A stretch of DNA of 64,000 nt from a virus (IMGVR_UViG_3300031857_000056:38590-102589); one strand, 5' to 3'; positions 6,264-47,346 are shown, counted from the first letter of the stretch. The notes: a model not told the origin generated them from the letters alone. Program-made: numbers and translations.

Positions 6264-6287
6264 CAGTGTTTTAATATTTATTAAAGA

Positions 6288-9200
6288 ATGAGAATAACAG
6301 ATCTACCACAATTATTTACAGCGTCTATCAATGATTTGCTGTACGTAATTGATGTAAACGATACAAGTAGCTTTTTTTCTGGGTCAAGCAAAAGAATAGA
6401 CATTAGTACTCTTTTTTCTTCACCTAGCATAACCGCTAGTTTTGCTAAAAAAGCATTAAGTGCTAGTTATGCTAAAACAGCCAGTTACGCACTAGTATCA
6501 AGATCATCCAGTTACGCATTTAATGCTACAACCGCAAGTTATGCATTAAATGCTGGTACCAAAATATACACAGGCAGTGTATATCCAATAACCGCAAGTT
6601 GGGCTATCAATGGTGGCACCAAATTGTATACCGGCAGTACATACCCAATAACTTCCAGTTGGGCACTCAATGGTGGCACAAAGTTATATACTTCCAGTAC
6701 ATATCCAATAACCGCAAGTTGGGCCATAACCGCGAGTTACGCTTTAAATCAAACCACCAGCGGTACATCAGGCACTTCTGGCACCGCAGGTAGTAGCGGA
6801 ACAAGTGGTACCAGTGGCACAAGTGGTACCAGTGGCACCAGTGGAACAAATGGCACCAGTGGATCAAGTGGGTCAAGTGGATCAAGTGGTACATCTGCAA
6901 CCGCTGGTACTAGTGGTTTAACAGGATCAAGTGGTACGAGTGGTACAAGCGGCAGTGATGGTACCAGTGGGTCAAGCGGTAGCAGTGGCAGCAGTGGTAC
7001 CAGCGGTATAGAAGGTGGTAGATTGTTTACCGTAACAAGTTCTGGATTTAATTATAATATCGCTGGTTACACTGGATCATTTCCTACCATTACGGTGGTA
7101 AGGGGACAATTATATTACTTTGATGTAAGCGGTGTATCTGCGTCACATCCATTTGCCTTGAGATTGTCAAGTGGCAATACTAGTGCTGTACCTGGCACCA
7201 CAAATAATGATCCTGTAAATGGATTGGCAAATACAAACACTTTAATAATTTACAGAGTACCTGAAGACGCTCCTTCTAGTATAGTTTACCAATGTGTTGT
7301 ACATTCAGGTATGATTGGAACTATAAATATAGTAAACCAATATGGTACATCTGGTACATCTGGTACTGCGGGAACAGCCGGTAGTAGCGGAAGTAGTGGC
7401 ACAAGTGGTAGTGATGGTACCAGTGGGTCTAGCGGTAGTAGTGGAGAATCTGGTACAAGTGGTAGCAGTGGAAGTAGTGGAAGTAGTGGTAGTAGCGGAT
7501 CTAGCGGTAGTAGCGGTAGTAGTGGAAGTAGTGGTACAAGCGGCAGTGATGGTACCAGTGGATCCAGCGGTAGCAGTGGCAGTAGTGGAACAAGTGGTAT
7601 AGAAGGTGGTGGTTTATTTACAGTAACTAGTTCTGGTTTTAATTATAACATTGCTGGTTATTCTGGTACTTTTCCTACTATTACGGTAGTGAGAGGTCAG
7701 TTGTATTATTTTAATGTAAGCGGCGTATCTGCATCACATCCATTTGCATTGAGATTATCAAGTGGTAATACTGCAACAGTACCAGGAACAACAAACAATG
7801 ATCCTGTAAATGGATTGGCAAATACAAACACTTTAATAATTTACAGAGTACCCAATGATGCGCCTAATAGTATAGTTTATCAGTGCGTTATACATTCAGG
7901 TATGATTGGAACTATAAACATAGTTGATCAATATGGTACATCCGGTACATCTGGTACTACGGGAACAGCTGGATCAAGTGGTAGCAGTGGTAGCAGTGGT
8001 AGCAGTGGTGAAAATGGTACAAGTGGTACTAGCGGTAGTACTGGTACAAGTGGTAGCAGTGGATCCAGTGGAAGTAGTGGAACAAGTGGTACGTCCGCAA
8101 CTGCTGGTACAAGTGGTGAAACTTTTGGTACCAGTGGTACTAGCGGCAGTACAGGAACAAGTGGTACTAGTGGAGAATCTGGTACAAGTGGTAGCAGTGG
8201 ATCCAGTGGAAGTAGTGGAACAAGCGGCACCAATGGTACATCTGCAACTGCTGGTACAAGCGGTGAAACTTTTGGTACCAGTGGTACCAGTGGATTGACG
8301 GGAACTAGCGGTACATCTGGTAGTACCGGAACAAGTGGTAGCAGTGGTAGCAGTGGAGAATCAGGTACCAGTGGAAGTAGTGGACAATCTGGTACTAGTG
8401 GCAGTAGTGGTAATACTGGTAGCAGCGGTAGTAGTGGTGTGAGTGGTACTACGTTGTATACTGGTAGCACATATCCTATAACGGCTAGTAGAGCTGTTAC
8501 TGCAAGTTATGCGTTGAATGCTACTGGTGGTGGAAGTTCTTTGTACACTGGTAGTACTTATCCGATAACTGCAAGTTGGGCACTGTATGTAGTGAATGGA
8601 ACTAGTGGTACTGCTTCATTGAATTTAACTAACATTACACGTAGTGGCAATGGAAGTGGTTCTGTTTATAATTTAAATAACAATACATTTACCGGCACAA
8701 ATTCTTTGGTATTTCTGGGTGGTATTACTTTAAATAATAATATTGATTATACACTGAGTTCTGGAATATTAACATTTACTTCCCCACCACTATTAAATGA
8801 AGAAATACACGTTGTTAAATTTACAGGTGGTGGTGCAAATGGTACTAGTGGTACAAGTGGCATAGTTGGTATTGCCAATGCGCAAACATTCACAAGCAAT
8901 GGTATTGCTACACAATACGCTCTTACACAAAGTGTAGTACGTAGTTATGACATTATAGTTGCTATAAATGGTGTGGTTCAAAATTACAGTTCCAGTTATA
9001 CTGTAACTGGATCTACACTTACATTAGCTTCTGCACCACCATTAAATTCTAAAGTGGATGTCAGATTTTTAGGTAGCGCAGCTGGCGGTGGAGGAGGCGG
9101 TAGCGGCACAAACGGTACAAGTGGATCAAGTGGATCAAGTGGTACTAGCGGCACAAGTGGGTCAAGTGGAGAATCAGGTACAAGTGGATCAAGTGGAGAA

Positions 9201-9911
9201 TCAGGTACAAGTGGGTCAAGTGGGTCAAGTGGAGAATCAGGTACAAGTGGGTCAAGTGGTACTAGCGGCACAAGTGGATCAAGTGGAGAATCAGGTACAA
9301 GTGGGTCAAGTGGTACTAGCGGCACAAGTGGGTCAAGTGGAGAATCAGGTACAAGTGGATCAAGTGGGTCAAGTATATCTTTGCAAACTGGCAGTTTATA
9401 TCCCATAACGGCAAGTAGAGCTATTACTGCAAGTTACGCATTGAACGCAACTGGTGGTGGAAGTTCTTTGTATACTGGTAGTACTTATCCCATAACAGCG
9501 AGTAGAGCTATTACTGCAAGTTACGCATTGAATGCTTCTGGTGGAGGTGGTAGTACATTACAAACTGGTAGCACTTATCCCATTACTAGTAGTTATGCTA
9601 ATTTTGCAATAAATATTGCTGGTAGTGTTACTACATTGGTGGGTACTGATATAAATTGGAACAATCCAACTTATGAAAAGAATATTTCAGTTGCAGAGAC
9701 ATATACATTTTCAAATGTTACAACTGGCAGTTCAATTGTGGTTATATTGAATAATACAGGCAGCAACAGTATATTATCTACATTTCCAAATAGTGTAAAA
9801 TGGGCCAATTCATTGCCACCCACAAATATACTATCAAATGCAACTTCAATTTATACATTTGTAAGAACCAAATTATATGTTCTGGGTAGTTCTACTGAAA
9901 ACTATCAATAA
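6288..9911 (+). CDS. collagen-like (G-X-Y) fiber protein with two embedded cupredoxin-like domains and YPITAS repeats
   Basis: 1207 aa. Long GTS/GSS/GES triplet runs. N-terminal 'ITDLPQLFTAS..DLLYVIDVND' fiber-attachment-like motif. Repeated 'LYTGSTYPITASWA' units. Two ~109-aa globular inserts. Confidence 0.7.
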   Translation: MRITDLPQLFTASINDLLYVIDVNDTSSFFSGSSKRIDISTLFSSPSITASFAKKALSASYAKTASYALVSRSSSYAFNATTASYALNAGTKIYTGSVYPITASWAINGGTKLYTGSTYPITSSWALNGGTKLYTSSTYPITASWAITASYALNQTTSGTSGTSGTAGSSGTSGTSGTSGTSGTSGTNGTSGSSGSSGSSGTSATAGTSGLTGSSGTSGTSGSDGTSGSSGSSGSSGTSGIEGGRLFTVTSSGFNYNIAGYTGSFPTITVVRGQLYYFDVSGVSASHPFALRLSSGNTSAVPGTTNNDPVNGLANTNTLIIYRVPEDAPSSIVYQCVVHSGMIGTINIVNQYGTSGTSGTAGTAGSSGSSGTSGSDGTSGSSGSSGESGTSGSSGSSGSSGSSGSSGSSGSSGSSGTSGSDGTSGSSGSSGSSGTSGIEGGGLFTVTSSGFNYNIAGYSGTFPTITVVRGQLYYFNVSGVSASHPFALRLSSGNTATVPGTTNNDPVNGLANTNTLIIYRVPNDAPNSIVYQCVIHSGMIGTINIVDQYGTSGTSGTTGTAGSSGSSGSSGSSGENGTSGTSGSTGTSGSSGSSGSSGTSGTSATAGTSGETFGTSGTSGSTGTSGTSGESGTSGSSGSSGSSGTSGTNGTSATAGTSGETFGTSGTSGLTGTSGTSGSTGTSGSSGSSGESGTSGSSGQSGTSGSSGNTGSSGSSGVSGTTLYTGSTYPITASRAVTASYALNATGGGSSLYTGSTYPITASWALYVVNGTSGTASLNLTNITRSGNGSGSVYNLNNNTFTGTNSLVFLGGITLNNNIDYTLSSGILTFTSPPLLNEEIHVVKFTGGGANGTSGTSGIVGIANAQTFTSNGIATQYALTQSVVRSYDIIVAINGVVQNYSSSYTVTGSTLTLASAPPLNSKVDVRFLGSAAGGGGGGSGTNGTSGSSGSSGTSGTSGSSGESGTSGSSGESGTSGSSGSSGESGTSGSSGTSGTSGSSGESGTSGSSGTSGTSGSSGESGTSGSSGSSISLQTGSLYPITASRAITASYALNATGGGSSLYTGSTYPITASRAITASYALNASGGGGSTLQTGSTYPITSSYANFAINIAGSVTTLVGTDINWNNPTYEKNISVAETYTFSNVTTGSSIVVILNNTGSNSILSTFPNSVKWANSLPPTNILSNATSIYTFVRTKLYVLGSSTENYQ
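7014..7340 (+). other. cupredoxin (plastocyanin/amicyanin)-like domain, copy 1
   Basis: 'FPTITVVRGQLYYFDVSG' strand, then His in 'SASHPFALR', then 49 aa later 'YQCVVHSGM' (Cys-x2-His-x2-Met). This is the full type-1 Cu ligand pattern. Confidence 0.55.
7605..7930 (+). other. cupredoxin-like domain, copy 2
   Basis: Near-identical duplicate: 'SASHPFALR' ... 'YQCVIHSGM'. Confidence 0.55.
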
Positions 9912-11348: not shown

Positions 11349-12716
11349 ATGTCAACAGGAATAAACAACAATATTGATTGTAAATTGCAAGGCAAAGTTC
11401 GTGTTGTGGTTATGGAAAAAGACAAAATCATACACGACACTGGTGAAATAAAAAATATGATCACCAATCAAGGTATGGATGAAGTTGCAAATAGACCATT
11501 TGCTGAATTATTCGCTTGTTGTGCAATTGGAACTGGAACTGCTGATACTAAAAAAACCAATGTTCCCATAACTGGTTCCATAACATCAGGCAATGGTTTT
11601 GATATTAATTTAAGAGGCAGTGTTTCTCGTAGATCTGGATCATTGGTAACGTTTCCCAGAACAAGTGTAGCATTTCCTATATCAGGCAGTGTTATTAGAG
11701 CAAGTGATGTGGGTAATATCATTAAAATAAACAACGATAATACTTTTAGAATAAGAGCACAAACTGGTATTAATACAGCCAGAAGTTGTAGTGTATTAAA
11801 TATGGATGGTACTGTACCAACAGGATCCTCAAGTGATAATAATTATACCATTTGGTTTACCAATCAAATTAGTATGTCAAATGAAACACAAAGATGTGGT
11901 AGAACATCAGATGGCAATAACTTTCCTGCTGCATCAGGTAGTTATGGTACAAATTGTAATAGTCAAATTTATAGCAGCGGTATAATTCACAGTCGTCAAT
12001 TTAATTTTGCAACCGCATTGGTTGATGATACAAATACAATCACTGAAGTTGGATTGAGTTGGTTACCATTTTATAGAAGTCCAGCATTGTTTAGTAGAAT
12101 TCGTTTGACCCAAGGCAGTGCTGGTAATGCGATACCTGCTGTATTGGCTGGACAAAACGTGGTGGTATTTTATTCACTAAACGTTGGTATGTCGCCTACC
12201 ACAGCTACAACCGGTTCTGTTAATATAACTGGTAGCAATAAAGGTGGTAATTCACAAATGAATTTGTATGGATTAAGCAAAGTAAGTAGCAGTGGAGTAA
12301 CAACTTATTTTGATGGTGGGTTACACGGCAATGAACCATATTATTTTAACCAAAGAAGTAAATACGGACTACCAGATACAGTTTTTAGACCACTGTATAT
12401 ATTTACATCCGCAACTGATACTGCAAGTCCTACGTGGGGTACAAATATAACTAGAAATAGTAGTTTTATTACCAAATCAATTGATAAAACACCTGTATAT
12501 AGTAGAGTATATCCCACCAGCAGTTATGGTTATACATTAACCAAAGTGGCTACATTCAATGATACTGAATCTATCAATGCAACTTGGAACAGTTTTGGTG
12601 TGGGTGTACATACAGCCAGTAACTTGATGTCATTTGTATTTGGTGCTACTCAAAATAAACAAAATGGATATTTGTTAGCAATATCTCAATCGTTTACTTG
12701 GAATAGAATATTTTAA
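11349..12716 (+). CDS. hypothetical virion protein (Ser/Thr/Asn-rich)
   Basis: 455-aa ATG ORF within the structural block. Confidence 0.45.
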   Translation: MSTGINNNIDCKLQGKVRVVVMEKDKIIHDTGEIKNMITNQGMDEVANRPFAELFACCAIGTGTADTKKTNVPITGSITSGNGFDINLRGSVSRRSGSLVTFPRTSVAFPISGSVIRASDVGNIIKINNDNTFRIRAQTGINTARSCSVLNMDGTVPTGSSSDNNYTIWFTNQISMSNETQRCGRTSDGNNFPAASGSYGTNCNSQIYSSGIIHSRQFNFATALVDDTNTITEVGLSWLPFYRSPALFSRIRLTQGSAGNAIPAVLAGQNVVVFYSLNVGMSPTTATTGSVNITGSNKGGNSQMNLYGLSKVSSSGVTTYFDGGLHGNEPYYFNQRSKYGLPDTVFRPLYIFTSATDTASPTWGTNITRNSSFITKSIDKTPVYSRVYPTSSYGYTLTKVATFNDTESINATWNSFGVGVHTASNLMSFVFGATQNKQNGYLLAISQSFTWNRIF

Positions 12717-12736
12717 TATTAATAGTTATAAGTTAT

Positions 12737-13915
12737 ATGCCACAACCAATATCACAATTAGCAGACTATACAACAATAACAGGATCCGCATTTGTTCCTA
12801 TTGTTGATGTTAATGAAACAGTATCATCAAAAAACAAAAAGATCAGTGTAGATGATTTGAGAAAAACTTTCTTTAAAAGTGGAGTTCTTCTTTCATCTTC
12901 TTTCACAGAACATACGCCGGGTTTTTATTACTTTGGTGACAATCGTGATGGTCGTCTCAATTTAACAGGTTCAATTGCCACTGTTAGAACTTTTGTAAGC
13001 AGATCGTTCGCAAGTACACAAGATGGCGCACCTGTCGTTAAAAACTTTAGTTCGTTGTTCATTTCCAGAAGTGTGGTGGTGAGTCCAACCAATAGATGTA
13101 GAGGATTGTTGATATTTGTGGATGGTGATGCAACCATCAGTGGTAGCATAAGTATGACTGCTAGAGGAGCGAGGTTTACAGGAAGCGACGCTTCCTTCAC
13201 AACAATAAATCCGCCATATTTGGGTGATTACTGGAGCACGCAGTTGTTTCCGTCTGCGAGTTATTTGAGCAGAGTATTTGCGGTTGGAGCGGCTGGTGGT
13301 ACGGCTGGCCCCGCTCCATCTAGCGTTGGTGGCGTTGGTGTCACTGGTATACTGGGAAGAAGTGGAGGTGGAGGAGGCGGCGGTGGACAAGCAGCCGCGG
13401 GTGGAGCGGGATCAACAGGCACATCTTTTAGTGGTGGATCTGGTGGTGGAGGAGGTGGGCCATCTCCAGGAGCAAATGGCTTTGCATTTGGTGGTCAAGG
13501 TGGTCCAACGCTTGGTAGCGGCGGCGCCGGATCAGGCAATCCAGGTGGAATAACGCCAGCTCAGCCGCCCAGTAGTCCACTCCCAGTCTCAGCACCAAGT
13601 GGTACTGGTGGATTGTTAATATTAATAGTGAAAGGTAATTTAAGAATTGGACCAAATGGATCAATTACGGCTAATGGAATCAGTGGTGGTAATGGACTTG
13701 CTGGTTTTGGAACTGCTGGTGGCGGTGGAAGTGGAGGTGGAGTGTTATATATTTATTATGGTGGGTCTTTAACAAATAATGGCACTGTAACTGCTAATGG
13801 TGGGTCAGGTGGTTTAACTGGTACACCCTCGCCAGCTCTTAATCAAGGCGGAGCAGGAGGAGCTGGAACTGCGATAATATCAAAATTAAACGTTGCATTT
13901 CCAGTAGCAAACTAA
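12737..13915 (+). CDS. glycine-rich tail-fiber-like protein, paralog 1
   Basis: N-terminal 'ISQLADYTTITGSAFVPIVDVNE' motif, 'NRCRGLLIFVDGDATISG' motif, GGGGGG runs, C-terminal 'GGLLILIVKGNLRIGPNGSITANG...VLYIYYGG.LTNNGTVTANGG'. Confidence 0.6.
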   Translation: MPQPISQLADYTTITGSAFVPIVDVNETVSSKNKKISVDDLRKTFFKSGVLLSSSFTEHTPGFYYFGDNRDGRLNLTGSIATVRTFVSRSFASTQDGAPVVKNFSSLFISRSVVVSPTNRCRGLLIFVDGDATISGSISMTARGARFTGSDASFTTINPPYLGDYWSTQLFPSASYLSRVFAVGAAGGTAGPAPSSVGGVGVTGILGRSGGGGGGGGQAAAGGAGSTGTSFSGGSGGGGGGPSPGANGFAFGGQGGPTLGSGGAGSGNPGGITPAQPPSSPLPVSAPSGTGGLLILIVKGNLRIGPNGSITANGISGGNGLAGFGTAGGGGSGGGVLYIYYGGSLTNNGTVTANGGSGGLTGTPSPALNQGGAGGAGTAIISKLNVAFPVAN

Positions 13916-13927
13916 ATAATTATTTAT

Positions 13928-15052
13928 ATGCCTACAAGAATATCAGATTTACCCGAATATACAACAATAACATCATCAGCATTTGTGCCTATTGTTGATG
14001 TTAATGAATTGGTAGCTTCAAAAAATAAAAAAATAAGAATTGACGATTTAAGAAAATATTTTTTCACAGGCACAACCACCAGCAGTTCTTTCACAGAACA
14101 TACCCCAGGCCTTTATTACTTTGGCGATAACAGCGACGGACCTCTTAACTTAACAGGCTCTATCGCCACCGTTAGAACTTTTGTAAGCAGATCCTTCGCA
14201 AGCACTCAAGATGGCGCGCCTGTCGTTAAGAACTTCAGTTCATTGTTCATTTCCAGAAGCGTAGTAGTGAGTCCAACAAATAGATGTAGAGGAATGTTGA
14301 TATTTGTGGATGGTGATGCAACTATTAGTGGTAGTCTACGAATGAACGGCAGAGGTGCTTCCGCGGTTGGAGCTGATGCGTCTTTTACAACAATAAATCC
14401 GCCATATTTGGGTGATTACTGGAGCACGCAATTGTTTCCTTCGTCGAGTTATTTGAGCAGAGTATTTGCTGTAGGCGCAGCAGGTTCAGGCTATGGAACT
14501 GATGGGGTAACTGGTGTAAATGGAAGATCTGGTGGCGGAGGAGGTGGGTCTAGTTATGGTGCACCGACAGCAGGTTCAGGCGCAACCGGCACATCGTTTA
14601 GTGGTGGTTCTGGTGGAGGTGGATCCCAGGTTAACGTCATCGCCGGAGGAAGTGCGAGTGGAAATGGTGGCGCAGGGGGAAATGGCGCAACCGGCCCCGG
14701 CGGTACCGGCGGCGGTGGAGCTGGAAATCCAGGCGGCACTCCAAATGGAGGTGTAGGAACAGGTGGATTATTAATATTAATTGTACGAGGTAATTTAAGA
14801 ATTGGGCCAAATGGCAGTATAACATCAAATGGTAGCAATGGCGGAAATGCAAGTAGTCCAACGCAGGGCGGAGGAGGAGGTGGAAGTGGCGGTGGGGTGT
14901 TATATGTATATTATGGCGGTACACTAACAAACAATGGCACTGTAACCGCATCTGGAGGCACCCGTGGCACGGGTGGAAACGTTGCTGGAAACGGTGGAGC
15001 TGGAACTGCTATATTATCAAAATTAAACGTTGCATTTCCAGCAGCAAACTAA
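13928..15052 (+). CDS. glycine-rich tail-fiber-like protein, paralog 2
   Basis: About 70% identical to paralog 1 over the N-terminal 200 aa, with the same C-terminal motifs. Confidence 0.6.
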   Translation: MPTRISDLPEYTTITSSAFVPIVDVNELVASKNKKIRIDDLRKYFFTGTTTSSSFTEHTPGLYYFGDNSDGPLNLTGSIATVRTFVSRSFASTQDGAPVVKNFSSLFISRSVVVSPTNRCRGMLIFVDGDATISGSLRMNGRGASAVGADASFTTINPPYLGDYWSTQLFPSSSYLSRVFAVGAAGSGYGTDGVTGVNGRSGGGGGGSSYGAPTAGSGATGTSFSGGSGGGGSQVNVIAGGSASGNGGAGGNGATGPGGTGGGGAGNPGGTPNGGVGTGGLLILIVRGNLRIGPNGSITSNGSNGGNASSPTQGGGGGGSGGGVLYVYYGGTLTNNGTVTASGGTRGTGGNVAGNGGAGTAILSKLNVAFPAAN

Positions 15053-15065
15053 TATTTAATAATAT

Positions 15066-16100
15066 ATGGCAAATAAACGTATAACAGATTTAACCGAAGC
15101 AACTTTTGTAAGTGCGAGTAATTTTTATGTTGTGTATGATCCTACAGCTACACAAGATCAAAATGCTGATGGTTATACTGATTTTAATAAAAAAGTAAAA
15201 CTAAAAAATATTTGTACCCAAGTAAGTCAATCAGCCATCACTTGGTTTGGTACAGGCGCAAATGGTGCTTTAAATACAACAGGTAGTGTTACTTTTACCA
15301 CTACAAATGATCAAGAAGTATTTGTGAGAAATTATACATCTCTCACAGTAAATGCTGGTCATACAATGACTGTAAGCAACAGATGTAGAGGATTGTTGAT
15401 ATATGTTGGGGGAGATTGTACTATAAATGGTACAGTAACAATGTCAGGCAAAGGAGCCAACTCGGTTGGAACAGCTGCTCATTATGTATATCAATCTAAA
15501 AATTACTATGGCAACTTTATTCCCCAATATCAATTTAACAGCGTAAAATTATATGGATCTGGTAGTGCCGGTGGACCCGCAAATACTGCTGGTAGATCCG
15601 CAGGCGAAGGTTATACAGGTGGTGGAGGCGGTGGAGGTGGAACTGGTGGTGCTGGTGCAGCAGGCACCAGTTGGAGTGGTGGATCAGGTGGAGGTGGTGG
15701 ACCATCTGCAACTGCAGGCACTATAAATGGTGGTGCTGGTGGTAATGGTACAGCTGCGAATACTGGTGGTGGTGCTGGTAATGGTGGTGGCAGTGCTGGT
15801 CCAGGTGGTATAGCTGGTGGTACTGGTACAGGTGGTTTGATTATTTTTGTGGTAAAAGGTACATTTACATTGGGAAATACAGGTGCAATAACTGCAAATG
15901 GTGTTGCGGGTGGAAATGGTAGTGCAGGAGGAGGAGGAGGTAGTGGAGGTGGAAGAATAGTTGTATTATACAATCAAAATTATATAAATAATGGTGGTAC
16001 TATTACTGCAAATGGTGGAGCTGGTGGAGGAACTGCTCCAACTGCTGGTGGCAGTGGGGGAGCCGGTAGCATAACAATAAGAGAAATAGGAATTTGGTAA
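15066..16100 (+). CDS. glycine-rich tail-fiber-like protein, paralog 3
   Basis: 'ITDLTEAT' N-terminus, 'NRCRGLLIYVGGDCTINGT', Gly-rich C-terminus. Confidence 0.55.
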   Translation: MANKRITDLTEATFVSASNFYVVYDPTATQDQNADGYTDFNKKVKLKNICTQVSQSAITWFGTGANGALNTTGSVTFTTTNDQEVFVRNYTSLTVNAGHTMTVSNRCRGLLIYVGGDCTINGTVTMSGKGANSVGTAAHYVYQSKNYYGNFIPQYQFNSVKLYGSGSAGGPANTAGRSAGEGYTGGGGGGGGTGGAGAAGTSWSGGSGGGGGPSATAGTINGGAGGNGTAANTGGGAGNGGGSAGPGGIAGGTGTGGLIIFVVKGTFTLGNTGAITANGVAGGNGSAGGGGGSGGGRIVVLYNQNYINNGGTITANGGAGGGTAPTAGGSGGAGSITIREIGIW

Positions 16101-16117
16101 AATATTTATAAAGTTAT

Positions 16118-17359
16118 ATGGCAATACCATCACAAGCAATATCTCAAATGACTACCTTGGTAGGTAGTAATCGTAACGACAATTGTTTATTTACATTGTA
16201 TAATGCATTAATATCGTCCAGTGTCAATCAAAATTTAAAAGCAAGAATAAGTACCCACGAACAATTTTATAGCAACAACAATACCGTCATAAATCAAGGT
16301 ACTTATAATAATTACTTTGGAACAGGCAAAGATGGTAGTGTAACCATAAGTAGCAGTGCGCAAATAAGTTCATCCACATCTCCAGCTGGATTAAATAATA
16401 TTAGTCGTGAATTTGGCGACCCAGTTATAAAAAACTTTCAAAATTTAACCATCAACAGTGGTGTATTGTTCAGCCCATTAAGAGCTTGTAGAGGAATGAT
16501 AATATATTGTACTGGCAATTTAACAGTAAACGGCACTTTGAGTATGACTGGTAAAGGTGGAGGCGTTGGTTCTAAAGTCGCGTCTCCTATTGGATTTGCT
16601 ACAAGCACCGATTCAAGATATGATTTGGTGGATGCTACATTATATTTTAACAATTTTTCATCAAGCACTGCAGGTGGAAGAGGAATACCTACACATTGGA
16701 ATTGGGCGCCTAGTGGTAGTATTTGGTTTAATAATTATAAGATTAGAGTGCCATTGAGTGGGAGTGCTGCTGGAGGAGGACCAAATAATGGTGGTAGTGC
16801 GGGAATATTTTGTTGTGGAGGTGGAGGTGGGGGTGGTCAATCAAACCCTGGCGCGGTAAGGGCAGGAGGATCCGGTGGTAGCGGAACTATATTTCTAGGA
16901 GGAGGGGGAGGAGGAGGAGGATCATACGGCGGCGGCGCCGGCACCAACGGCATATTTGAAGCTGGTGGAATTGGCGGATTTGGGCCTAATCCAGGATTAG
17001 GCCCAAATGGTTCTGGCGGAGGTGGAGCTGGAACACCTGCTGGACCTGGCTCCGGAGGCGCTGGTAATACAGGCGTTGGTGGATTAATTATATTAATAGT
17101 ACGTGGTAATATTACAATAAACGGCACAGTTTCTAGTGGTGGCGCAAATGGAGGTAATGGAACTACTGGAGGTGCTGGAGCTGCTGGCGGTGGCGGTGGA
17201 AGTGGCGGTGGTAGGATAATAATTATTTACGGCGGTACATATAGTAATGTTGGTACCATTGTGGTTAATGGTGGCTCCGGCGGCGCCGGTGGCCCCGGCG
17301 CACTCACTGGTGGTGCTGGTGGTGCGGGTTCTATAACTATAAGAAGGGTAAATGTTTAA
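16118..17359 (+). CDS. glycine-rich tail-fiber-like protein, paralog 4
   Basis: 'RACRGMIIYCTGNLTVNGT', Gly runs, 'GGLIILIVRGNITINGT'. Confidence 0.55.
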   Translation: MAIPSQAISQMTTLVGSNRNDNCLFTLYNALISSSVNQNLKARISTHEQFYSNNNTVINQGTYNNYFGTGKDGSVTISSSAQISSSTSPAGLNNISREFGDPVIKNFQNLTINSGVLFSPLRACRGMIIYCTGNLTVNGTLSMTGKGGGVGSKVASPIGFATSTDSRYDLVDATLYFNNFSSSTAGGRGIPTHWNWAPSGSIWFNNYKIRVPLSGSAAGGGPNNGGSAGIFCCGGGGGGGQSNPGAVRAGGSGGSGTIFLGGGGGGGGSYGGGAGTNGIFEAGGIGGFGPNPGLGPNGSGGGGAGTPAGPGSGGAGNTGVGGLIILIVRGNITINGTVSSGGANGGNGTTGGAGAAGGGGGSGGGRIIIIYGGTYSNVGTIVVNGGSGGAGGPGALTGGAGGAGSITIRRVNV

Positions 17360-17365
17360 AATTTT

Positions 17366-18589
17366 ATGGCTACACAAATATCAAGTTTAACAACACTAGT
17401 TAATGGCGTAAACAGTTATGATTGTTTTTTGCCATTGGTTGATCCAACATTAGCATTAGATTCTCGTAATGTTAAAATTAGAATAAGTACCCACAATGAA
17501 ATGTTCAGCAACAACTTTGCTGTAGCTAGTTTGAGCAGTTATGCAAACTATTTTGGAACAGGCAAAGATGGTAGCTTAACCATAAGCAGCAGTGCTCAAG
17601 TAAGCGCTTCATTGAATAATATTAGTCGTGAATTTGGCGACCCAGTTATAAAAAACTTTCAAAATTTAACCATCGGCAGTGGTATATTATTTAGTCCACT
17701 AAGAGCTTGTAGAGGTATGATAATATATTGCACAGGCGATTTAACGGTGAATGGTACCATAAGTATGACTGGTAAAGGTGGAGGCGTTGGTTCTAAAGTC
17801 GCGTCTCCTATTGGATTTGCTACAAGCACCGATTCAAGATATGATTTGGTGGATGGCACATTATATTTCAATAATTTTTCATCAAGTACAGCGGGTGGTT
17901 ATGGAATACCTACGCATTGGAATTGGGCGCCTAGTGGAAGTGTTTGGTTTAGGAATTATAAGATACGAGTGCCATTGAGCGGAAGTGTTGACGGTGGCAA
18001 TGGTGCATCGACCGCTGCGGCTTCGGGTAATGCGGGATCAGCTGGTATATTTAGTTGTGGTGGCGGCGGTGGTGGTGGTTCCGGAGAATCGCAGTATGGT
18101 ACTTTTGGATCAGGAGCTTCTGGAGGCAGAGGAACTATATTTTCTGGTGGTGGCGGTGGAGGAGGCGGCGGCGGTGGATGTTGTGGTGGCAATGTACCTG
18201 GTACATCTGGTATTCTTGAAAGAGGAGGAGCAGGGGGAGCTTCTCCTAACGGCCCAGCGGGTGGAGGAGCGGGAACTACAACTACTGGTGGAAACGGTAC
18301 ATTAGGTGTTGGGGGATTATTAATATTAATTGTACGTGGAAATATAATAATTAATGGAACTATTAGTTCAAATGGAGCTAGTGGTGGAAACGGAGTACGT
18401 ATTAGTAAAGGATCTGGTGGAGGAGGTGGAAGTGGCGGTGGTCGAATAATTATAACTTATGGCGGTACATACACTAATGCGGGTTCCGTTGTTGCAAATG
18501 GTGGATCAGGTGGTTCTGCCAGCTCTGGCGGTGGTCCAGGTGCGTCTGGTGGTGCTGGATCTATAACTACAAGAAAGATACATATATGA
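17366..18589 (+). CDS. glycine-rich tail-fiber-like protein, paralog 5
   Basis: Close paralog of 16118..17359, including a shared 200-nt near-identical block. Confidence 0.55.
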   Translation: MATQISSLTTLVNGVNSYDCFLPLVDPTLALDSRNVKIRISTHNEMFSNNFAVASLSSYANYFGTGKDGSLTISSSAQVSASLNNISREFGDPVIKNFQNLTIGSGILFSPLRACRGMIIYCTGDLTVNGTISMTGKGGGVGSKVASPIGFATSTDSRYDLVDGTLYFNNFSSSTAGGYGIPTHWNWAPSGSVWFRNYKIRVPLSGSVDGGNGASTAAASGNAGSAGIFSCGGGGGGGSGESQYGTFGSGASGGRGTIFSGGGGGGGGGGGCCGGNVPGTSGILERGGAGGASPNGPAGGGAGTTTTGGNGTLGVGGLLILIVRGNIIINGTISSNGASGGNGVRISKGSGGGGGSGGGRIIITYGGTYTNAGSVVANGGSGGSASSGGGPGASGGAGSITTRKIHI

Positions 18590-18954
18590 GAGATAAAATT
18601 ATAATATATAGCGTTCATGACAAAACGAGCAGAGAATTTGTTGCTGCATATGGTAACAGAAACGACGTTACTGTGTTGGAAGATGACGGATATAGTGTTC
18701 GAATAAAATATCCATACATTAGTGCTTTTCCAACTGTAATAATAAATACACCTTCATATACGGAGTCTTTTATTGTAGATGAAGGTGGAGGCGGTGCATT
18801 TGTAAATTTAGATTCTATTGGAAATGAAACAATAGTGCCAGAAGATGTAGAATATATTAGATCTCCTAAAGATTGGAATGAAGTACAACAACGTATTGAT
18901 TATTGGGAAAACAAAGTGCCCAATTGGAAACAAACTGATACTAGATATTTATGA
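18586..18954 (+). CDS. hypothetical protein (paralog of 20220..20549)
   Basis: 'MRDKIIIYSVHDKTSREFVAAYGNRNDVTVLEDDG' and 'DYWENKVPNWKQTD' shared with the downstream copy. ATGA overlap with neighbours. Confidence 0.5.
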   Translation: MRDKIIIYSVHDKTSREFVAAYGNRNDVTVLEDDGYSVRIKYPYISAFPTVIINTPSYTESFIVDEGGGGAFVNLDSIGNETIVPEDVEYIRSPKDWNEVQQRIDYWENKVPNWKQTDTRYL

Positions 18955-19625
18955 CAAGATATACCATTTTAGGCGAACGTAGATCAGGTACTAATTTTTT
19001 GCAACATTGTATAACTGACAACTTCAATTTACAATTAGATTGGTTAAAAGGATGGAAACATTTTTTTGGATGTAATGGTTATGAAGATAAATTGAAGAAT
19101 AACCAAGACGTAATATACTTGTGTATTGTTAGAAATCCAATTGATTATTTTGTATCATTTTATAATTCTAAATTGATGCAAAGTGAAGAACGTACAAAAG
19201 ATATTGAAACGTTTTTATTATCAGAATTTTATTCAGTTTATAACTATAAAAACGGATTAATTGACGTATCAGACGACTATAATTTTAAAAATAACAATAA
19301 GCGTTACAAAAACATATTTGAAATGCGATCCGTTAAATGTAAATATTTGTTAGATGATATGCCTAATTTAGTGAGTAAATATCATTTTATAAGATATGAA
19401 GATTTAAAACATAATACTAATACTGTATTGAATACAATTAGTGATAAATTTAATCTTATAAAAAAGAATGACAATTATTTAATAAATACAAATTATGTCG
19501 GTGTAAAAATTAATGGAGGTGTTATAACAGAAAATTATCAAGTTGAAGATAAAATAAAACAGATAATATATAACAATATAGATTTATCGACAGAACATAG
19601 AATGGGTTATTTGACCGATATATGA
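18951..19625 (+). CDS. sulfotransferase-family protein (PAPS-dependent)
   Basis: 5'-PSB-like 'GERRSGTNFL' and 3'-PB-like 'IVRNPIDYFVSFY' (RxPxDxxxS) motifs. Confidence 0.5.
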   Translation: MTRYTILGERRSGTNFLQHCITDNFNLQLDWLKGWKHFFGCNGYEDKLKNNQDVIYLCIVRNPIDYFVSFYNSKLMQSEERTKDIETFLLSEFYSVYNYKNGLIDVSDDYNFKNNNKRYKNIFEMRSVKCKYLLDDMPNLVSKYHFIRYEDLKHNTNTVLNTISDKFNLIKKNDNYLINTNYVGVKINGGVITENYQVEDKIKQIIYNNIDLSTEHRMGYLTDI

Positions 19626-20185
19626 AATTATACTCATATGATATAACTGAATTTAATTTTAAAGAGCAATTACAAACTGTTTTGAACGTGTCTAATTTAG
19701 ATGATTTGGGGGAAAACAAAGATAAAGAGAAACTGTATTCTGAGTATATTTTGGGTAAACAGTTTTTAGATATGTATGTACAGTTTATAAAAAAATATGT
19801 TAGAAATTTGTACGATGACGTTATAGCATATCAAACTAAACCAGTATGTAGATTGGTATATAAAAATAAATTAAATATGCATAAACTTCATAAAGACAAG
19901 TGGTATAGAAGAAATACTATTTATAGTGATATGCAGATAGATAATATTTTTTTACCATTTACAAATGCTTTTGATACAAACACAATTTGGACTGAATCAG
20001 TTGAAGACAGTCACGATTTTTTTCCGATAAATTGTGATTACGGACAATTTGTACACTGGGATGGTTGCAATTTACTTCACGGTAATAAATTTAATAATAC
20101 TAACAAAACAAGACTGAGTATAGATTTTAGAGTTTATAAATACAAAAATTTATTACACCCAGAGTATTCTTTATTGAATTTTTAG
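19622..20185 (+). CDS. hypothetical protein, possible 2OG-Fe(II) oxygenase-like
   Basis: H-K-D ... 'VHWDG..LHG' ... 'RLSIDFR' resembles an HxD..H..RxS triad. Weak. Confidence 0.3.
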   Translation: MKLYSYDITEFNFKEQLQTVLNVSNLDDLGENKDKEKLYSEYILGKQFLDMYVQFIKKYVRNLYDDVIAYQTKPVCRLVYKNKLNMHKLHKDKWYRRNTIYSDMQIDNIFLPFTNAFDTNTIWTESVEDSHDFFPINCDYGQFVHWDGCNLLHGNKFNNTNKTRLSIDFRVYKYKNLLHPEYSLLNF

Positions 20186-20219
20186 AAGAAAAACTATTTA
20201 TTAGTTACACAAAGAGATT

Positions 20220-20549
20220 ATGAGAGATACAATTATAATACATAATATTCATGACAAAGCGAGTAGAGAATTTGTTGCTGCATATGGTAACAGAAATGAT
20301 GTTACTGTATTGGAAGACGACGGACTAAATGTACGTTTAGCGTTTCCTTATATCAGCGCTTTTCCTACTGTTGTAATACCCACACCATCTTATGAAAATA
20401 CAGATGAAAATGGAACAGTAACCCAAATCGAAGGATCTATAGAATATCTAAGAGCACCTGAAGATTGGAATACAGTACAAACACGAATTGATTATTGGGA
20501 AAACAAAGTACCCAATTGGAAACAAACTGATAGTAGATACAAACAATAA
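20220..20549 (+). CDS. hypothetical protein (paralog of 18586..18954)
   Basis: Shared N- and C-terminal motifs with 18586..18954. Confidence 0.5.
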   Translation: MRDTIIIHNIHDKASREFVAAYGNRNDVTVLEDDGLNVRLAFPYISAFPTVVIPTPSYENTDENGTVTQIEGSIEYLRAPEDWNTVQTRIDYWENKVPNWKQTDSRYKQ

Positions 20550-20554
20550 TTAAA

Positions 20555-20929
20555 ATGAATAATCAACCAACCGTAACTTGGAAAGTAACAAATTTAGATT
20601 GTTATCCTACATATCAACAAAACACCGATGTTGTATTTACAGTACATTGGGATTGTTTGGGGCAAATTGTTGTATCCACTGGCAGTTTGAGTGGATCTAC
20701 ATACAACAGTAGATTATATGGTACCACTGGTGTACAATACCACAGTGGATCTTCATTTATACCATACAATCAATTAACTCAAGATGATGTGCTTGGATGG
20801 ACATTTGATAGTATGGGAACTGGCAGCAAGTATAATATTGAAAAAGGAGCTGTATCAAGTTTATACACTCAGATAAATCCACCTGTAGTACAACCACCTT
20901 TGCCTTGGGTAACAACTGGTTCTATTTGA
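20555..20929 (+). CDS. hypothetical protein
   Basis: ATG ORF of 124 aa. Confidence 0.4.
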   Translation: MNNQPTVTWKVTNLDCYPTYQQNTDVVFTVHWDCLGQIVVSTGSLSGSTYNSRLYGTTGVQYHSGSSFIPYNQLTQDDVLGWTFDSMGTGSKYNIEKGAVSSLYTQINPPVVQPPLPWVTTGSI

Positions 20930-20977
20930 TTTATAATAAGTACTGTTGTGTAAATAAAAACTATATATTAAAAAGTT

Positions 20978-21157
20978 ATGGAAGAAAACAAACAAATAAA
21001 TTTAGCTGATTTGACGCTCGTAGAATTAAAAGCAATATCTTATGATGAAATTGTCAAATTGAATTTGGCACAAAACAACTTAAGAGTTTTAAATCAAGAA
21101 TTATATAACCGTCAACAAAAAGGCGTAGAAGGTGCTTCGCCAGTAAATCAAAATTAA
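20978..21157 (+). CDS. small hypothetical protein (59 aa), paralog of 21167..21361
   Basis: Not in the ORF track because it is under 60 aa. 'DLTLVELKAISYDEIVKLNLAQNNLRVLNQEL' parallels 'DLTVIELKSLAYDELAKIELCQNNLRALNQEI'. Confidence 0.35.
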   Translation: MEENKQINLADLTLVELKAISYDEIVKLNLAQNNLRVLNQELYNRQQKGVEGASPVNQN

Positions 21158-21166
21158 AATAGTTTT

Positions 21167-21361
21167 ATGGAAAAAAAGATATCTGACTTAACCGTGATTG
21201 AATTAAAAAGTTTAGCATATGATGAATTGGCTAAAATTGAATTGTGCCAAAATAATCTTCGTGCATTGAATCAAGAAATTACAAATAGATTGCAACCACA
21301 GTCAAATCAATTGAGTGGGAATTTTGATAGCCCCCCCACCGCTACAACCGAAACCGTTTAA
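21167..21361 (+). CDS. small hypothetical protein
   Basis: Paralog of 20978..21157. Last plus-strand gene before the strand switch. Confidence 0.4.
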   Translation: MEKKISDLTVIELKSLAYDELAKIELCQNNLRALNQEITNRLQPQSNQLSGNFDSPPTATTETV

Positions 21362-21621
21362 ACGGGATCACCATAGATATTGAAGCCTTTGGGTGGTTGT
21401 GGTACCACTTCTTCTTCAATTGTCTTAATAGCATACAATTTGCTATCTAGTGGGGCTAGTCTATATTCACACTTGATCTTGGTTTCTTTGAAATAAGATT
21501 CAAGCGCTTCAGTGATACTTGGATGAATGATTTTACGGTTATCATTCACAAGAGTCCATCTATCGCCAGGTGGTACTCTAGTAGCAATCAATTCATTGTG
21601 TTCTGTAATTTTTGTAGCCAT
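21358..21621 (-). CDS. hypothetical protein
   Basis: ORF of 87 aa. First gene of the minus-strand block at the convergent junction. Confidence 0.4.
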   Translation of the reverse strand: MATKITEHNELIATRVPPGDRWTLVNDNRKIIHPSITEALESYFKETKIKCEYRLAPLDSKLYAIKTIEEEVVPQPPKGFNIYGDPV

Positions 21622-21627
21622 AATATA

Positions 21628-21921
21628 TTATCGGGGTTTGACAAAGAATATTTTGTGCATTCCTGTCATATAAAAAGTATTCAAATCCATATTCAACGCT
21701 TTACATTCCAATTCTCCCGGCCAAAATCCTTTCCAAGAAGCAAATTGTTTATCGTGGTTAGTACATTCACAACTTATTTTTTGACCACCACATTCACTAC
21801 ATCTTTCAATGTCACACTTTTTCTTGTGTATTTTACCCGCAACAACTTTGCAACTAAAACAATTGTCTAGTTCCACTTTCTGACACACTGGAGTTTGTTT
21901 CTTTTTCATAATTAACAACAA
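21628..21921 (-). CDS. Cys-rich (zinc-finger-like) small protein
   Basis: Multiple CxxC pairs. Confidence 0.4.
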   Translation of the reverse strand: MLLIMKKKQTPVCQKVELDNCFSCKVVAGKIHKKKCDIERCSECGGQKISCECTNHDKQFASWKGFWPGELECKALNMDLNTFYMTGMHKIFFVKPR

Positions 21922-22124
21922 TGTCCTTTCTTGTCATCTGCAGTAAAATTATTTAGATTATAGTTACTTGAACGTATATCCCGCAATCCATACAATTCTC
22001 TGTACATATCATATACGATATGATCCAAATCTTTTACTGTCATTGGAATGCTTTTGGTTTTATCTACTTCTTGCATTTTCAAACAATGTTTTTTGATGAT
22101 AGAATCAATTTGTTCTTTCATCAA
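21912..22124 (-). CDS. hypothetical protein
   Basis: ORF of 70 aa, overlap-coupled to neighbours. Confidence 0.35.
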   Translation of the reverse strand: MMKEQIDSIIKKHCLKMQEVDKTKSIPMTVKDLDHIVYDMYRELYGLRDIRSSNYNLNNFTADDKKGHCC

Positions 22125-22366
22125 TTTTTAGTAGTGTTAATAATTTTACCGTCACAATTATAATAGGCTCTATAATAATTGGTATGCACAGTATATACAC
22201 TGTTTGTTGAATTTTCAATCATACTATAAGTAATATAGTCGTTGTTAATTGCATGTACTCTACTACAGGGTGGTAGATTTTCTAATGCTCTATTATAACT
22301 ATATCTTAGATACATTCCACTAGTACAACCAGTAGACAACAATGCAATAATCAATAAATTCTTCAT
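22121..22366 (-). CDS. putative lipoprotein
   Basis: N-terminal 'MKNLLIIALLSTGCTSG' signal plus lipobox. Confidence 0.45.
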   Translation of the reverse strand: MKNLLIIALLSTGCTSGMYLRYSYNRALENLPPCSRVHAINNDYITYSMIENSTNSVYTVHTNYYRAYYNCDGKIINTTKN

Positions 22367-22587
22367 TCTGTTAGCTCACGTTCTTCTACTGAATAATTAT
22401 GACTTTCTTTGTACATATCACAATATTTCTGAGCATTTTCTTTTTTGAGATATACCTTCTCAATTGCCAGATCGTTTCCTCTATATGACATAATGAGGTA
22501 TACCTTAAGTTTTGGTGGTTCTACTGTCATAGCAGTCAATAGAATTGCTGTTAGCCCCCCCACTATAATTTTATTAAAACGATTCAT
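22363..22587 (-). CDS. small secreted/membrane protein
   Basis: N-terminal hydrophobic segment. Confidence 0.35.
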   Translation of the reverse strand: MNRFNKIIVGGLTAILLTAMTVEPPKLKVYLIMSYRGNDLAIEKVYLKKENAQKYCDMYKESHNYSVEERELTE

Positions 22588-22792
22588 ACTTACTTAGTTT
22601 GTTTTTATAACGTTGAATTGTAATGTGATCTTCATCCATATGATTGTTAGCTTTAACGATTTCTTTACTGAATCGTTCCACTTCATCACACAGATAACGA
22701 ATGTCTTCACACAGTTTTGCATCAAGCAAATTATTGCAGTTGTAACTTGTGAACTGTCGTAGTCTACTAATTACTTCTTGGTTAGTCTTCAT
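22574..22792 (-). CDS. hypothetical protein
   Basis: ORF of 72 aa. Confidence 0.35.
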   Translation of the reverse strand: MKTNQEVISRLRQFTSYNCNNLLDAKLCEDIRYLCDEVERFSKEIVKANNHMDEDHITIQRYKNKLSKYESF

Positions 22793-22973
22793 TGGTTCTG
22801 TAAATTACTTTATCAATGGTAATACCCTTCTTGGAAGATTTGGGTCCATATAAAGCACCCCATTGATTTCTGCTATTGATATAAGTCATTAAATCTTTTT
22901 TAATAACTTCCGCATCCAAATCATTGAAATTTGGTGGTAGATTAATTTTTAAATAATATTTTGGATCACTCAT
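22782..22973 (-). CDS. hypothetical protein
   Basis: ORF of 63 aa. Confidence 0.3.
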   Translation of the reverse strand: MSDPKYYLKINLPPNFNDLDAEVIKKDLMTYINSRNQWGALYGPKSSKKGITIDKVIYRTNED

Positions 22974-46420: not shown

Positions 46421-46912
46421 TTATTTAGTATACATTATAACTTTGTGTAGGTCAAATTCTTTTACAACTTCTTTATGTGTAAACGTATGTTCAAACTCAG
46501 GCATAAATGTATCACCATCATAATTACCATTTATATGCGTAACATAGAACTCCTTAATGTATGGTAACAACTTAATATAAGTTTTAGCACCACCAGCAAC
46601 AATCAAATAGTCTTTTCTAAATTGACTATATGATTCAAAATCTGTCATTGTAATCAGTTGACCAGTCATAGAGTTATTGTTTACCAGATATTGATTTGGA
46701 TTTGCAGCCATTATTTTGTCTTCTTTGACTAGTACAAGACATTCTCTATTTTTTAGAAGTGGTAGTGTATCAAATGTATTTTTACCTACCACAATAGTAT
46801 TACCAACGGTAAATTCTTTAAAGTGCTTAAAATCCTCTTTTATAGATGGCCAGGGTAATCCACCATTTTTGCCTATAACCCTATTTTGTGCCATTGCAAG
46901 TATTGCTTTCAT
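46421..46912 (-). CDS. folA: dihydrofolate reductase
   Basis: 'AMAQNRVIGKNGGLPW' N-terminal motif and 'VVGKNTFDTLP'. Confidence 0.7.
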   Translation of the reverse strand: MKAILAMAQNRVIGKNGGLPWPSIKEDFKHFKEFTVGNTIVVGKNTFDTLPLLKNRECLVLVKEDKIMAANPNQYLVNNNSMTGQLITMTDFESYSQFRKDYLIVAGGAKTYIKLLPYIKEFYVTHINGNYDGDTFMPEFEHTFTHKEVVKEFDLHKVIMYTK

Positions 46913-47346
46913 TGTATATAATTTAAAATTAGTTTGATTGATTGTTCAATAGAATTTTTATCGGTGTCAATATCAAGATAGTTATTTAATGGCGGTTCAT
47001 AATAATCCACCATCTTACCCTCCCTTAATCTGTTACTATGTAGATATACTTCTTTTACAATATGTGTAGAATCATTTTTTAATGAGTCTCTTAAATTTCT
47101 GAACGGAGATACTAACGACATTATTGTGTAATTATATAATTTGTTGCTAGTTTTTGCCATTTCTATAGCTAATCTCACATTACTTTTTCTGCCACTAATA
47201 CTATAGTCTTTATTGTTACTAATACTACGTAACGTATCCCCATCAATAGTTACAGCTGTACGATTTGTTTTTGTTAAAAGTGTTTCTAATGTTAACGCCA
47301 ATGTGGTTTTACCACTATTTGGTTGACCTGTTAATATAATAATCAT
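46909..47346 (-). CDS. P-loop kinase, adenylyl-sulfate (APS) kinase-like
   Basis: 'ILTGQPNSGKTTLA', 'IDGDTLR' (compare LDGDNVR), 'SNVRLAIEMAK' (compare ENIRRVGEVAK), 'VSPFR' (compare ISPHR). Confidence 0.45.
   Translation of the reverse strand: MIIILTGQPNSGKTTLALTLETLLTKTNRTAVTIDGDTLRSISNNKDYSISGRKSNVRLAIEMAKTSNKLYNYTIMSLVSPFRNLRDSLKNDSTHIVKEVYLHSNRLREGKMVDYYEPPLNNYLDIDTDKNSIEQSIKLILNYIQ

Follow-up and report, generated by a model that had tools for sequence, protein, structure and literature searches.

In Sinorhizobium Nod-factor synthesis and in Xanthomonas, a dedicated sulfotransferase (NodH and RaxST, respectively) is accompanied by extra, pathway-specific sulfate activation (NodPQ and RaxPQ), so that the donor 3'-phosphoadenosine-5'-phosphosulfate (PAPS) is not limiting when a secreted or surface molecule is modified. 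Both systems encode a full ATP sulfurylase together with an adenosine-5'-phosphosulfate (APS) kinase, and their acceptors are known: a lipo-chitooligosaccharide in the first case and a tyrosine of the RaxX peptide in the second. Here we describe a stretch of viral DNA of 64,000 nucleotides (IMGVR_UViG_3300031857_000056:38590-102589; the window, throughout) in which a gene for a PAPS-dependent sulfotransferase-fold enzyme, ST224 (18951..19625, plus strand, 224 aa), and a gene for a PhyH-like Fe(II)/2-oxoglutarate (2OG) dioxygenase, probably a hydroxylase, that we term DIOX (19622..20185, plus strand, 187 aa), lie together at the end of an array of tail-fibre genes.

Among viruses, the closest precedent in concept, itself predicted, is found in the Megavirinae, where fibril-glycosylation clusters carry a predicted sulfotransferase with a bifunctional sulfate adenylyltransferase (SAT)/APS kinase, as in Moumouvirus australiensis (Ma461 and Ma457, respectively) and Cotonvirus japonicus (ORF724/725) (PMC10117803). 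Sugar sulfation has been proposed for these clusters, with the comment that 'experimental validation is needed' (PMC10117803). Phage sulfotransferases have been catalogued as auxiliary metabolic genes (AMGs) of 'unclear' function (PMC10580990, PMC8290583); Sulfotransfer_3 genes are present in metagenomic viral genomes (MVGs) of OM43 phages (PMC10580990) and are annotated in the Synechococcus phages S-SKS1, S-SCSM1 and S-SRM01. An earlier reading of the window (the original prediction) had called sulfation chemistry rare in phages. At the level of sequence this was overstated, given the cyanophage annotations, the AMG listings and the 226 relatives of ST224, none of them named, that we find in metagenomes.

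Results

The original prediction had placed a sulfotransferase and a possible oxygenase between two duplicated small genes, directly after the tail-fibre array. All four open reading frames (ORFs) are present on the plus strand, the small genes being paralog A (18586..18954, 122 aa) and paralog B (20220..20549, 109 aa). The placement is likewise borne out: the last Gly-rich fibre paralog of the array (17366..18589, plus strand), which shares 62% identity with its neighbour at 16118..17359 and 60-69% with the fibre genes of relatives, overlaps paralog A. From this fibre gene the block runs through paralog A and ST224 to DIOX by three successive ATGA stop/start overlaps, with no terminator-like site inside it, and the minus-strand ORFs across the interval are short and spurious-looking. 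By this arrangement the ST224-DIOX module is translationally coupled to the last fibre gene. GC content over the two enzyme genes drops to 0.24-0.26, whilst GC at third codon positions (GC3) is even over the cassette and its flanking genes (0.17-0.23). Because GC3 is uniform, the dip reflects amino-acid composition (Lys/Asn/Ile/Tyr-rich proteins beside Gly-rich fibres) rather than foreign codon usage, and recent horizontal transfer is ruled out as its source.

The identities of both enzymes can be assigned with high confidence. ST224 passes the Pfam gathering thresholds of Sulfotransfer_1 (PF00685; 27.1 bits against a cutoff of 22, E=3.3e-6, over residues 51-165 only) and Sulfotransfer_2 (PF03567; 22.9 bits against a cutoff of 22), in each case narrowly. 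Both of the PAPS-binding signatures named in the original prediction, GERRSGTNF (residues 8-16) and VRNPIDYFVS (residues 60-69), are conserved across 51 homologs, and their cores are invariant in cellular homologs. A profile built from these 51 sequences returned sulfotransferases as its only meaningful matches in the Protein Data Bank (PDB), with the 3'-phosphate-binding motif 'ivRnPidylvS' aligned to 'IVRNPKDTAVS' of SULT7A1 (5x2b). The AlphaFold model is confident (pLDDT 93.2, pTM 0.89) and adopts the sulfotransferase alpha/beta fold, distinct from that of generic P-loop kinases: GERRSGT (G8-T14), the 5'-phosphosulfate-binding (PSB) loop, lies between strand 3-7 and helix 14-24, and R61 and S69 lie at a strand-helix junction (predicted strand 55-60, helix 63-72). 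Eight residues (R10, G13, T14, H37, R61, S69, R126 and E215) are invariant even when cellular homologs at 20-28% identity are included, and K36, beside H37, is nearly so. Such a set is the pattern expected of PAPS-binding loops plus a catalytic histidine, for which H37 would be the obvious candidate base. ST224 is probably a carbohydrate O-sulfotransferase.

The viral clade to which ST224 belongs has an internal identity of 40-75% and stands well apart from the cellular homologs; its family includes members on contigs of giant-virus metagenome-assembled genomes (L004, L005, L011, L013 and L026; the prefix L denotes the loci compared in this study). Index entries for the exact ST224 protein occur in 100 blocks of the metagenome collection, and the gene is thus common and intact. 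Nothing was found in 50,697 phage records, either by megablast of window positions 17000..22000 or by tblastn of the sulfotransferase, the dioxygenase and the APS-kinase-like protein described below.

The possible Fe/2OG oxygenase partner gained support from both motif and fold. The signature HxD...H...RxS (H90-x-D92, H153 and R164-x-S166) is invariant in 37 homologs and comprises an HxD...H iron triad with an arginine 11 residues past the distal histidine. A sequence-only PDB profile search gave chance matches to Fis only, and structure prediction was therefore needed; the predicted structure of DIOX has the double-stranded beta-helix fold and, on structural comparison, is nearest to PhyH-type small-molecule and sugar oxygenases rather than to prolyl 4-hydroxylase (P4H). 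Pfam gave no match to the single sequence, PhyH (PF05721) included, and weak PhyH matches to 4 of the 37 homologs (best E=0.0033). NCBIfam returned a partial match, below cutoff, to 'sporadic carbohydrate cluster 2OG-Fe(II) oxygenase' (E=7.7e-8), and several homologs carry the JGI annotation 'ectoine hydroxylase-related dioxygenase (PhyH family)'. DIOX is accordingly a member of the superfamily by fold and motifs, and not a member of Pfam PhyH.

Distant homologs of both enzymes were found among genes for glycan synthesis. In one locus on a large phage contig (L035) the neighbours of the ST224 homolog include GT1 (weak), Gly_transf_sug, GT6 and GT11 glycosyltransferases and GLF (UDP-galactopyranose mutase); in another (L034) they include a weak GT1, a weak radical-SAM protein and a methyltransferase; at a third locus (L003) the gene is clustered with large ORFs that have no annotation. 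The dioxygenase homologs neighbour RgpF, GT2, NDP-sugar epimerase/dehydratase, dTDP-sugar isomerase and TylF-type methyltransferase genes. The nearest cellular homologs of ST224, in cultured Phaeobacter italicus and Albibacillus kandeliae, are set among genes for a Wzz/GNVR tyrosine-kinase co-polymerase, Wzy, three GT2s, a Wzx-type flippase and a second sulfotransferase. Because glycan-biosynthesis clusters of phages contain the distant homologs of both enzymes, and exopolysaccharide clusters of bacteria the cellular sulfotransferases, a glycan is the probable substrate. The hedged proposal that the phage sulfates 'a glycan, fiber or host surface molecule' fits these contexts. We also considered whether a sulfotransferase-dioxygenase operon exists outside this lineage, and found none over 37 loci by tblastn and profile hidden Markov models (HMMs); the unannotated neighbours of the distant homologs were ruled out as a missing partner enzyme.

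The two small genes that bracket the module are, as had been claimed, duplicates of each other (64% protein identity, E=5e-56; about 80% DNA identity), with conserved N- and C-terminal parts and a hypervariable middle of variable length. Orthologs of paralog A, of 121-122 aa, are found in L027-L033, L040 and L042; against the L027 orthologs, paralog B has 94% identity and paralog A 70%. The duplication is old, each copy being orthologously conserved. No named family was found for the small paralogs in Pfam, PHROGs, NCBIfam or PDB profiles, and an HMM scan over 1.84 billion representatives recovered about 50 remote small relatives, again with no named family. A thioredoxin fold without the CxxC motif was considered and received no support. 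Six loci (L027-L030, L040 and L042) carry an extra fibre paralog between the dioxygenase and paralog B, so that each small gene there follows a fibre gene.

The 'cassette-like geometry' of the original prediction proved literally true. Close relatives (L039, L041, L043, L045, L142 and L145) have neither the sulfotransferase nor the dioxygenase and possess a single small gene of the B type; the copy kept in these enzyme-free relatives is paralog B (94% identity). By blastn, window positions 12668..18948 are collinear with positions 1..6321 of L041, and 20212..22966 with 5993..8798, leaving a repeat-bounded presence/absence indel at 18949..20211 relative to L041. The lone small gene of L041 aligns with both paralogs, and the breakpoints fall at the end of paralog A, the left repeat, and the start of paralog B, the right repeat. 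The sulfotransferase, the dioxygenase and one copy of the repeat thus constitute a true presence/absence cassette. No recombinase or transposase was found associated with it, and we therefore infer that gain and loss may proceed by homologous recombination between the small-gene repeats, at their DNA identity of roughly four-fifths. Ratios of non-synonymous to synonymous substitution (dN/dS) show purifying selection on all four genes: 0.11-0.14 for the sulfotransferase, 0.17-0.33 for the dioxygenase, 0.27-0.36 for paralog A and 0.11-0.19 for paralog B.

The locus is anchored downstream by a gene for a DUF7936 protein (20555..20929, plus strand; Pfam E=1.4e-20), which most relatives keep whether or not they have the cassette; it is unmatched in L039 and L045. 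On its 3' side are two neighbouring small genes (20978-21157 and 21167-21361; 59 and 64 aa) that are paralogs of each other, with about 48-57% identity in cross-matches, and the pair is kept in all relatives of the locus. Within the cassette itself, L040 (3426-4637; the region is also found as L139:10784-11989) has the sulfotransferase and the dioxygenase in one stop-free frame, with only 205 of the 224 sulfotransferase residues matched. The fusion may be natural, or else the product of a frameshift or of an error in assembly. The two are separate genes in L042, which is near-identical to L040. Compared with L042, window positions 18951-20185 are mosaic, the dioxygenase having 89% identity (dS 0.28) and the sulfotransferase 74% (dS 1.6), and recombination between the two genes is therefore implied.

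A further gene of possible relevance lies on the minus strand at 46909..47346 and encodes a 145-aa protein of the APS-kinase family, a candidate for the supply of PAPS. The original prediction had called it APS-kinase-like, and its family membership and motifs stand. It scores 59.8 bits against Pfam APS_kinase (cutoff 21.1); its top 22 PDB sequence matches consist entirely of APS kinases and PAPS synthases (best E=7.5e-13); and its P-loop GQPNSGKTT and its motifs IDGDTLR, DYS..GR..N and VSPFR align with 8a8h, 2yvu and 7yq0. These motifs are invariant across the phage family, which has 176 relatives on IMG/VR contigs. Against the NCBIfam equivalog model TIGR00455 the protein scores 68.3 bits, with a cutoff of 138.7, over model positions 20-123 of 184.

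The kinase-like gene and a sulfotransferase at the fibre end occur together on 3/3 contigs covering both regions; these are the informative contigs. The cassette-free contigs end before the expected position of the kinase-like gene. One contig with a 94%-identical kinase-like gene (L144/L171) has no cassette and carries instead ST274, a protein of 274 aa that matches Sulfotransfer_3 at 70.6 bits and lies between DUF7936 and the next conserved gene. The same ST274 is found on a contig with an 88%-identical kinase-like gene, and a contig with a 65%-identical one carries the ST224-dioxygenase cassette. ST224 and ST274 have no pairwise sequence similarity. The sulfotransferase slot at the fibre end thus displays non-orthologous replacement. 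In L144 (contig IMGVR_UViG_3300028569_000044) the ST274 gene, at 12405-13229 on the minus strand, lies between a DUF7936-Ig fusion and the p59 gene and adjoins a 547-aa fibre with a Peptidase_S74 chaperone domain; the small gene is also missing there. Mapping of the ST224 motifs by profile-profile alignment against the Pfam-validated ST274 family was attempted, and the segment 'IRYEDL' alone aligned (E=1.3e-4).

At least three proteins resembling glycosyltransferases are encoded in the window. Overlap-coupled upstream of the kinase-like gene are two paralogous ORFs of 215 and 249 aa (47343..48736, minus strand) that match PHROG 1574 (E=7e-58 and 1e-40), PHROG 34859 ('glycosyltransferase') and, weakly, Pfam Glycos_transf_2 and Anp1; a GT-B glycosyltransferase (Glyco_trans_1_3, Pfam E=2.9e-27) is encoded at 50427..51452 on the same strand. 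Between the glycosyltransferase genes is one (48911-49411, minus strand) whose 166-aa product bears a prepilin-type methylation motif at its N terminus; the position of this gene is kept in relatives L058-L065. On the plus strand at 6288..9911 is a collagen-like tail fibre of 1207 aa (Pfam Collagen E=7.5e-50; PHROG tail fibre) with G-(T/S)-S triplets: of its 146 G-X-Y triplets, 123 have T or S at X and 119 have S at Y, and none contains proline or lysine. This unusual, Ser/Thr-saturated composition would make the fibre a candidate acceptor for O-glycosylation, in which respect we take it to be comparable to BclA of Bacillus anthracis. A collagen prolyl or lysyl hydroxylase role for DIOX was rejected, as the repeats offer neither residue. 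Upstream of the fibre genes (173-3495) are four tandem paralogs of about 230 aa, each with a Laminin_G_3 (ConA-like lectin) domain.

Elsewhere in the window, a Mom-family protein (27133-27840; Pfam E=5.8e-44) suggests DNA base modification, and the glycan cluster of L035, a distant phage locus, likewise has a Mom homolog at its margin. Thymidylate synthase (45268-46419, minus strand, 383 aa) is matched piecewise by ThyA models around an insert of about 118 residues (roughly 157-275), and a GIY-YIG/I-TevI-like homing endonuclease gene lies directly beside it (44610-45290, plus strand), an arrangement that recalls the phage td genes invaded by introns or inteins. Two RNA ligase-type genes (30092-31144 and 36217-37308, minus strand; PHA02142 OB + RNA_ligase and RNA_lig_T4_1, respectively) and a protein with a cREC_REC cyclic-phosphate-processing receiver domain (43617-43997, minus strand) together suggest an RNA-repair set. 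No Rfam families or tRNAs were matched in the window.

Discussion

We tentatively favour reading 18951..20185 as a late-expressed accessory module in which two cytoplasmic tailoring enzymes jointly decorate a glycan, a possibility that we place somewhat below an even chance. That the acceptor is a glycan is, on its own, somewhat more probable than not. DIOX would introduce or change a hydroxyl group, either on a sugar or on a substituent of it, and ST224 would sulfate a hydroxyl, in sequence with DIOX or independently. The glycan would be made by the phage's own glycosyltransferases (the ORF pair at 47343..48736 and the GT-B enzyme at 50427..51452) and its most likely destination would be the virion fibres, such as the collagen-like one rich in Ser and Thr; a negative charge there would change adsorption or host range. 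The host would be the source of PAPS, and the short-lid APS-kinase-like enzyme of the phage may add to the supply by using host APS. By eye, neither translation has an obvious N-terminal signal peptide or hydrophobic segment, and cytoplasmic action fits with this and with the need for PAPS or 2OG. A glycan of the virion fibres is singled out as the most likely target because expression is late and coupled to a fibre gene, although we regard this choice of target as doubtful, less secure than the module reading itself. The presence of an unrelated Sulfotransfer_3 enzyme in the fibre-distal region of L144 supports the view that sulfation recurs at the locus.

Several observations weigh against this reading. 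The adjacency of sulfotransferase and dioxygenase is confined to this lineage, and in the 25 other viral loci with an ST224 homolog, as in the two examined loci with a distant dioxygenase homolog, the enzymes are apart; the two may not share one substrate molecule. The window glycosyltransferases lie 28 kb off, on the opposite strand, with genes of nucleotide metabolism as neighbours, and DNA modification could be their role instead. The lid of the kinase-like protein runs from residue 105 to 115 where that of 8a8h spans 127 to 157, leaving some 30 residues missing, and no ATP sulfurylase was found in the window. Fibre glycosylation in this phage, and the identity of the acceptor, are predictions.

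The main rival is that ST224 and DIOX act in the cytoplasm on precursors of the host envelope polysaccharide (O-antigen, capsule or extracellular polysaccharide units, or nucleotide sugars), the surface of the infected cell, once sulfated or hydroxylated, then blocking superinfection by competing phages or the re-adsorption of progeny to lysing cells. The cellular ST224 homologs sit in Wzx/Wzy-type polysaccharide clusters, the cytoplasmic appearance of both enzymes (judged by eye) suits this target, and the sugar-biosynthesis clusters around the phage homologs could feed either. We nevertheless consider it rather unlikely: the module is chained to a structural fibre gene, implying late expression and a poor time for remodelling a surface polymer; flippase, polymerase and integrase genes were not found nearby; and the phage seems to be a large lytic one that encodes nucleotide metabolism of its own. 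Direct modification of fibre proteins, with ST224 acting on Tyr/Ser/Thr and DIOX on residues of the fibres or of the small paralogs (compare tyrosylprotein sulfation and collagen hydroxylation), is improbable given that the collagen-like repeats offer no Pro or Lys to hydroxylate, that DIOX is closer to PhyH-type oxygenases than to P4H, and that homologs of both enzymes occur in carbohydrate clusters. Those same homolog contexts, consistently glycan-related and not metabolic, make it equally hard to credit a soluble-metabolite module of the classical AMG kind, in which an osmolyte, lipid or signalling compound would be hydroxylated and sulfated and the genes would lie in the fibre array by chance; the recurrence of a non-orthologous sulfotransferase at the same fibre-distal locus argues that position matters.

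A separate question is whether the APS-kinase-like gene has any part in sulfation. It may instead encode a nucleotide kinase of the thymidylate pathway, ST224 relying on host PAPS alone, and this falls only just short of an even possibility. Dihydrofolate reductase (DHFR) and ThyA genes follow it directly in 18/18 of the closest loci; the shortened lid is common to all members of the phage family, and the protein reaches half the TIGR00455 cutoff; neither ATP sulfurylase, CysH, CysQ nor any other sulfate-activation motif accompanies it in the window; and 176 viral contigs carry the kinase family against 26 loci of the ST224 family, both scans being by exact peptide patterns. On their own, the neighbours, the lid, the score and the missing enzymes would indicate a nucleotide kinase. 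Against this, the invariant residues fall on the APS-kinase motif positions (DGD..R, (F/Y)S..R..N and SPF(R)), the top PDB matches are APS kinases without exception, and a fibre-end sulfotransferase of either type is present on all three contigs that span both regions. Because of the short lid, the failed equivalog cutoff and neighbours that are DHFR and ThyA rather than the sulfotransferase, we regard the PAPS supply envisaged in the original prediction as plausible but unproven, with roughly even odds that the predicted role is real.

Returning to the module as a fibre-glycan tailoring device, the fullest version of that idea is that phages of this lineage put sulfated, hydroxylated glycans on their own tail fibres by means of phage glycosyltransferases, ST224-DIOX and PAPS from a minimal APS kinase, and that a fibre-distal slot swaps between ST224 with DIOX, ST274 and neither, retuning adsorption or host range. 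Taken whole, we think this idea unlikely. Were it true, bacteriophages would have their first sulfated glycoprotein virion, and the cassette would be a host-range determinant of a new kind. Should a virion glycan prove to be the target, phages would resemble the giant viruses in building decorated surface fibres, and sulfation would add a new axis to phage-host recognition. Sulfotransferase genes of viromes are regularly listed as auxiliary with an unclear role (PMC10580990), none of them characterised, and the locus offers a concrete and testable setting: a sulfotransferase in an array of receptor-binding genes, a coupled hydroxylase, close relatives that have the cassette, do not have it or have an alternative sulfotransferase, and a candidate PAPS kinase. 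New here are the module inside the tail-fibre array, its nature as a repeat-bounded optional cassette and the alternative sulfotransferase in the same region of a relative. Judged by sequence searches, the ST224, DIOX and short-lid kinase families are also new, being virus-centred and absent from the deposited phage records. At 224, 187 and 145 aa the enzymes are compact, and they may suit glycan engineering.

Comparison with the described systems places each component. DIOX resembles the PhyH, EctD and PtlH hydroxylases and the sugar-acting AviO1, EvdO1/2 and KanJ in its double-stranded beta-helix, its HxD...H triad and the arginine 11 residues past the distal histidine, and several of these structural neighbours oxidise sugars within glycoconjugates; KdoO is another sugar-acting relative of PhyH-type hydroxylases. 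At 187 aa it is much smaller than the PhyH/EctD/PtlH-type relatives (220-290 aa), and it fails the Pfam PhyH model. ST274 of L144 is of the Synechococcus-phage Sulfotransfer_3 type (25-30% identity), to which ST224 has no pairwise similarity (BLASTP E=1.9). ST224 belongs instead to the same family as the bacterial polysaccharide sulfotransferases of Phaeobacter italicus and Albibacillus kandeliae, retaining at 20-28% identity the PSB-loop, His37, Arg61 and Ser69 and sharing with them a glycan-biosynthesis context; the bacterial genes differ in being chromosomal or plasmid-borne, in their polymerase, flippase and co-polymerase flanks and in having no dioxygenase partner. In contrast to NodH and RaxST, with their complete activation enzymes, the sulfotransferase here has a truncated kinase alone, tied to it by co-occurrence on three contigs.

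The likeness to the Megavirinae is one of predicted function and gene setting. Both encode a sulfotransferase, an enzyme of the APS-kinase family and viral glycosyltransferases, and in both the proposed outcome, sulfation of fibre sugars, is a prediction. Unlike those giant viruses, the present virus is a tailed phage, and its kinase is a short-lid protein of 145 aa that has no sulfurylase domain and is encoded 28 kb from the sulfotransferase, beside DHFR and ThyA. Here, moreover, the sulfotransferase is paired with an Fe/2OG dioxygenase, and the two are carried as an optional cassette inside the fibre array.

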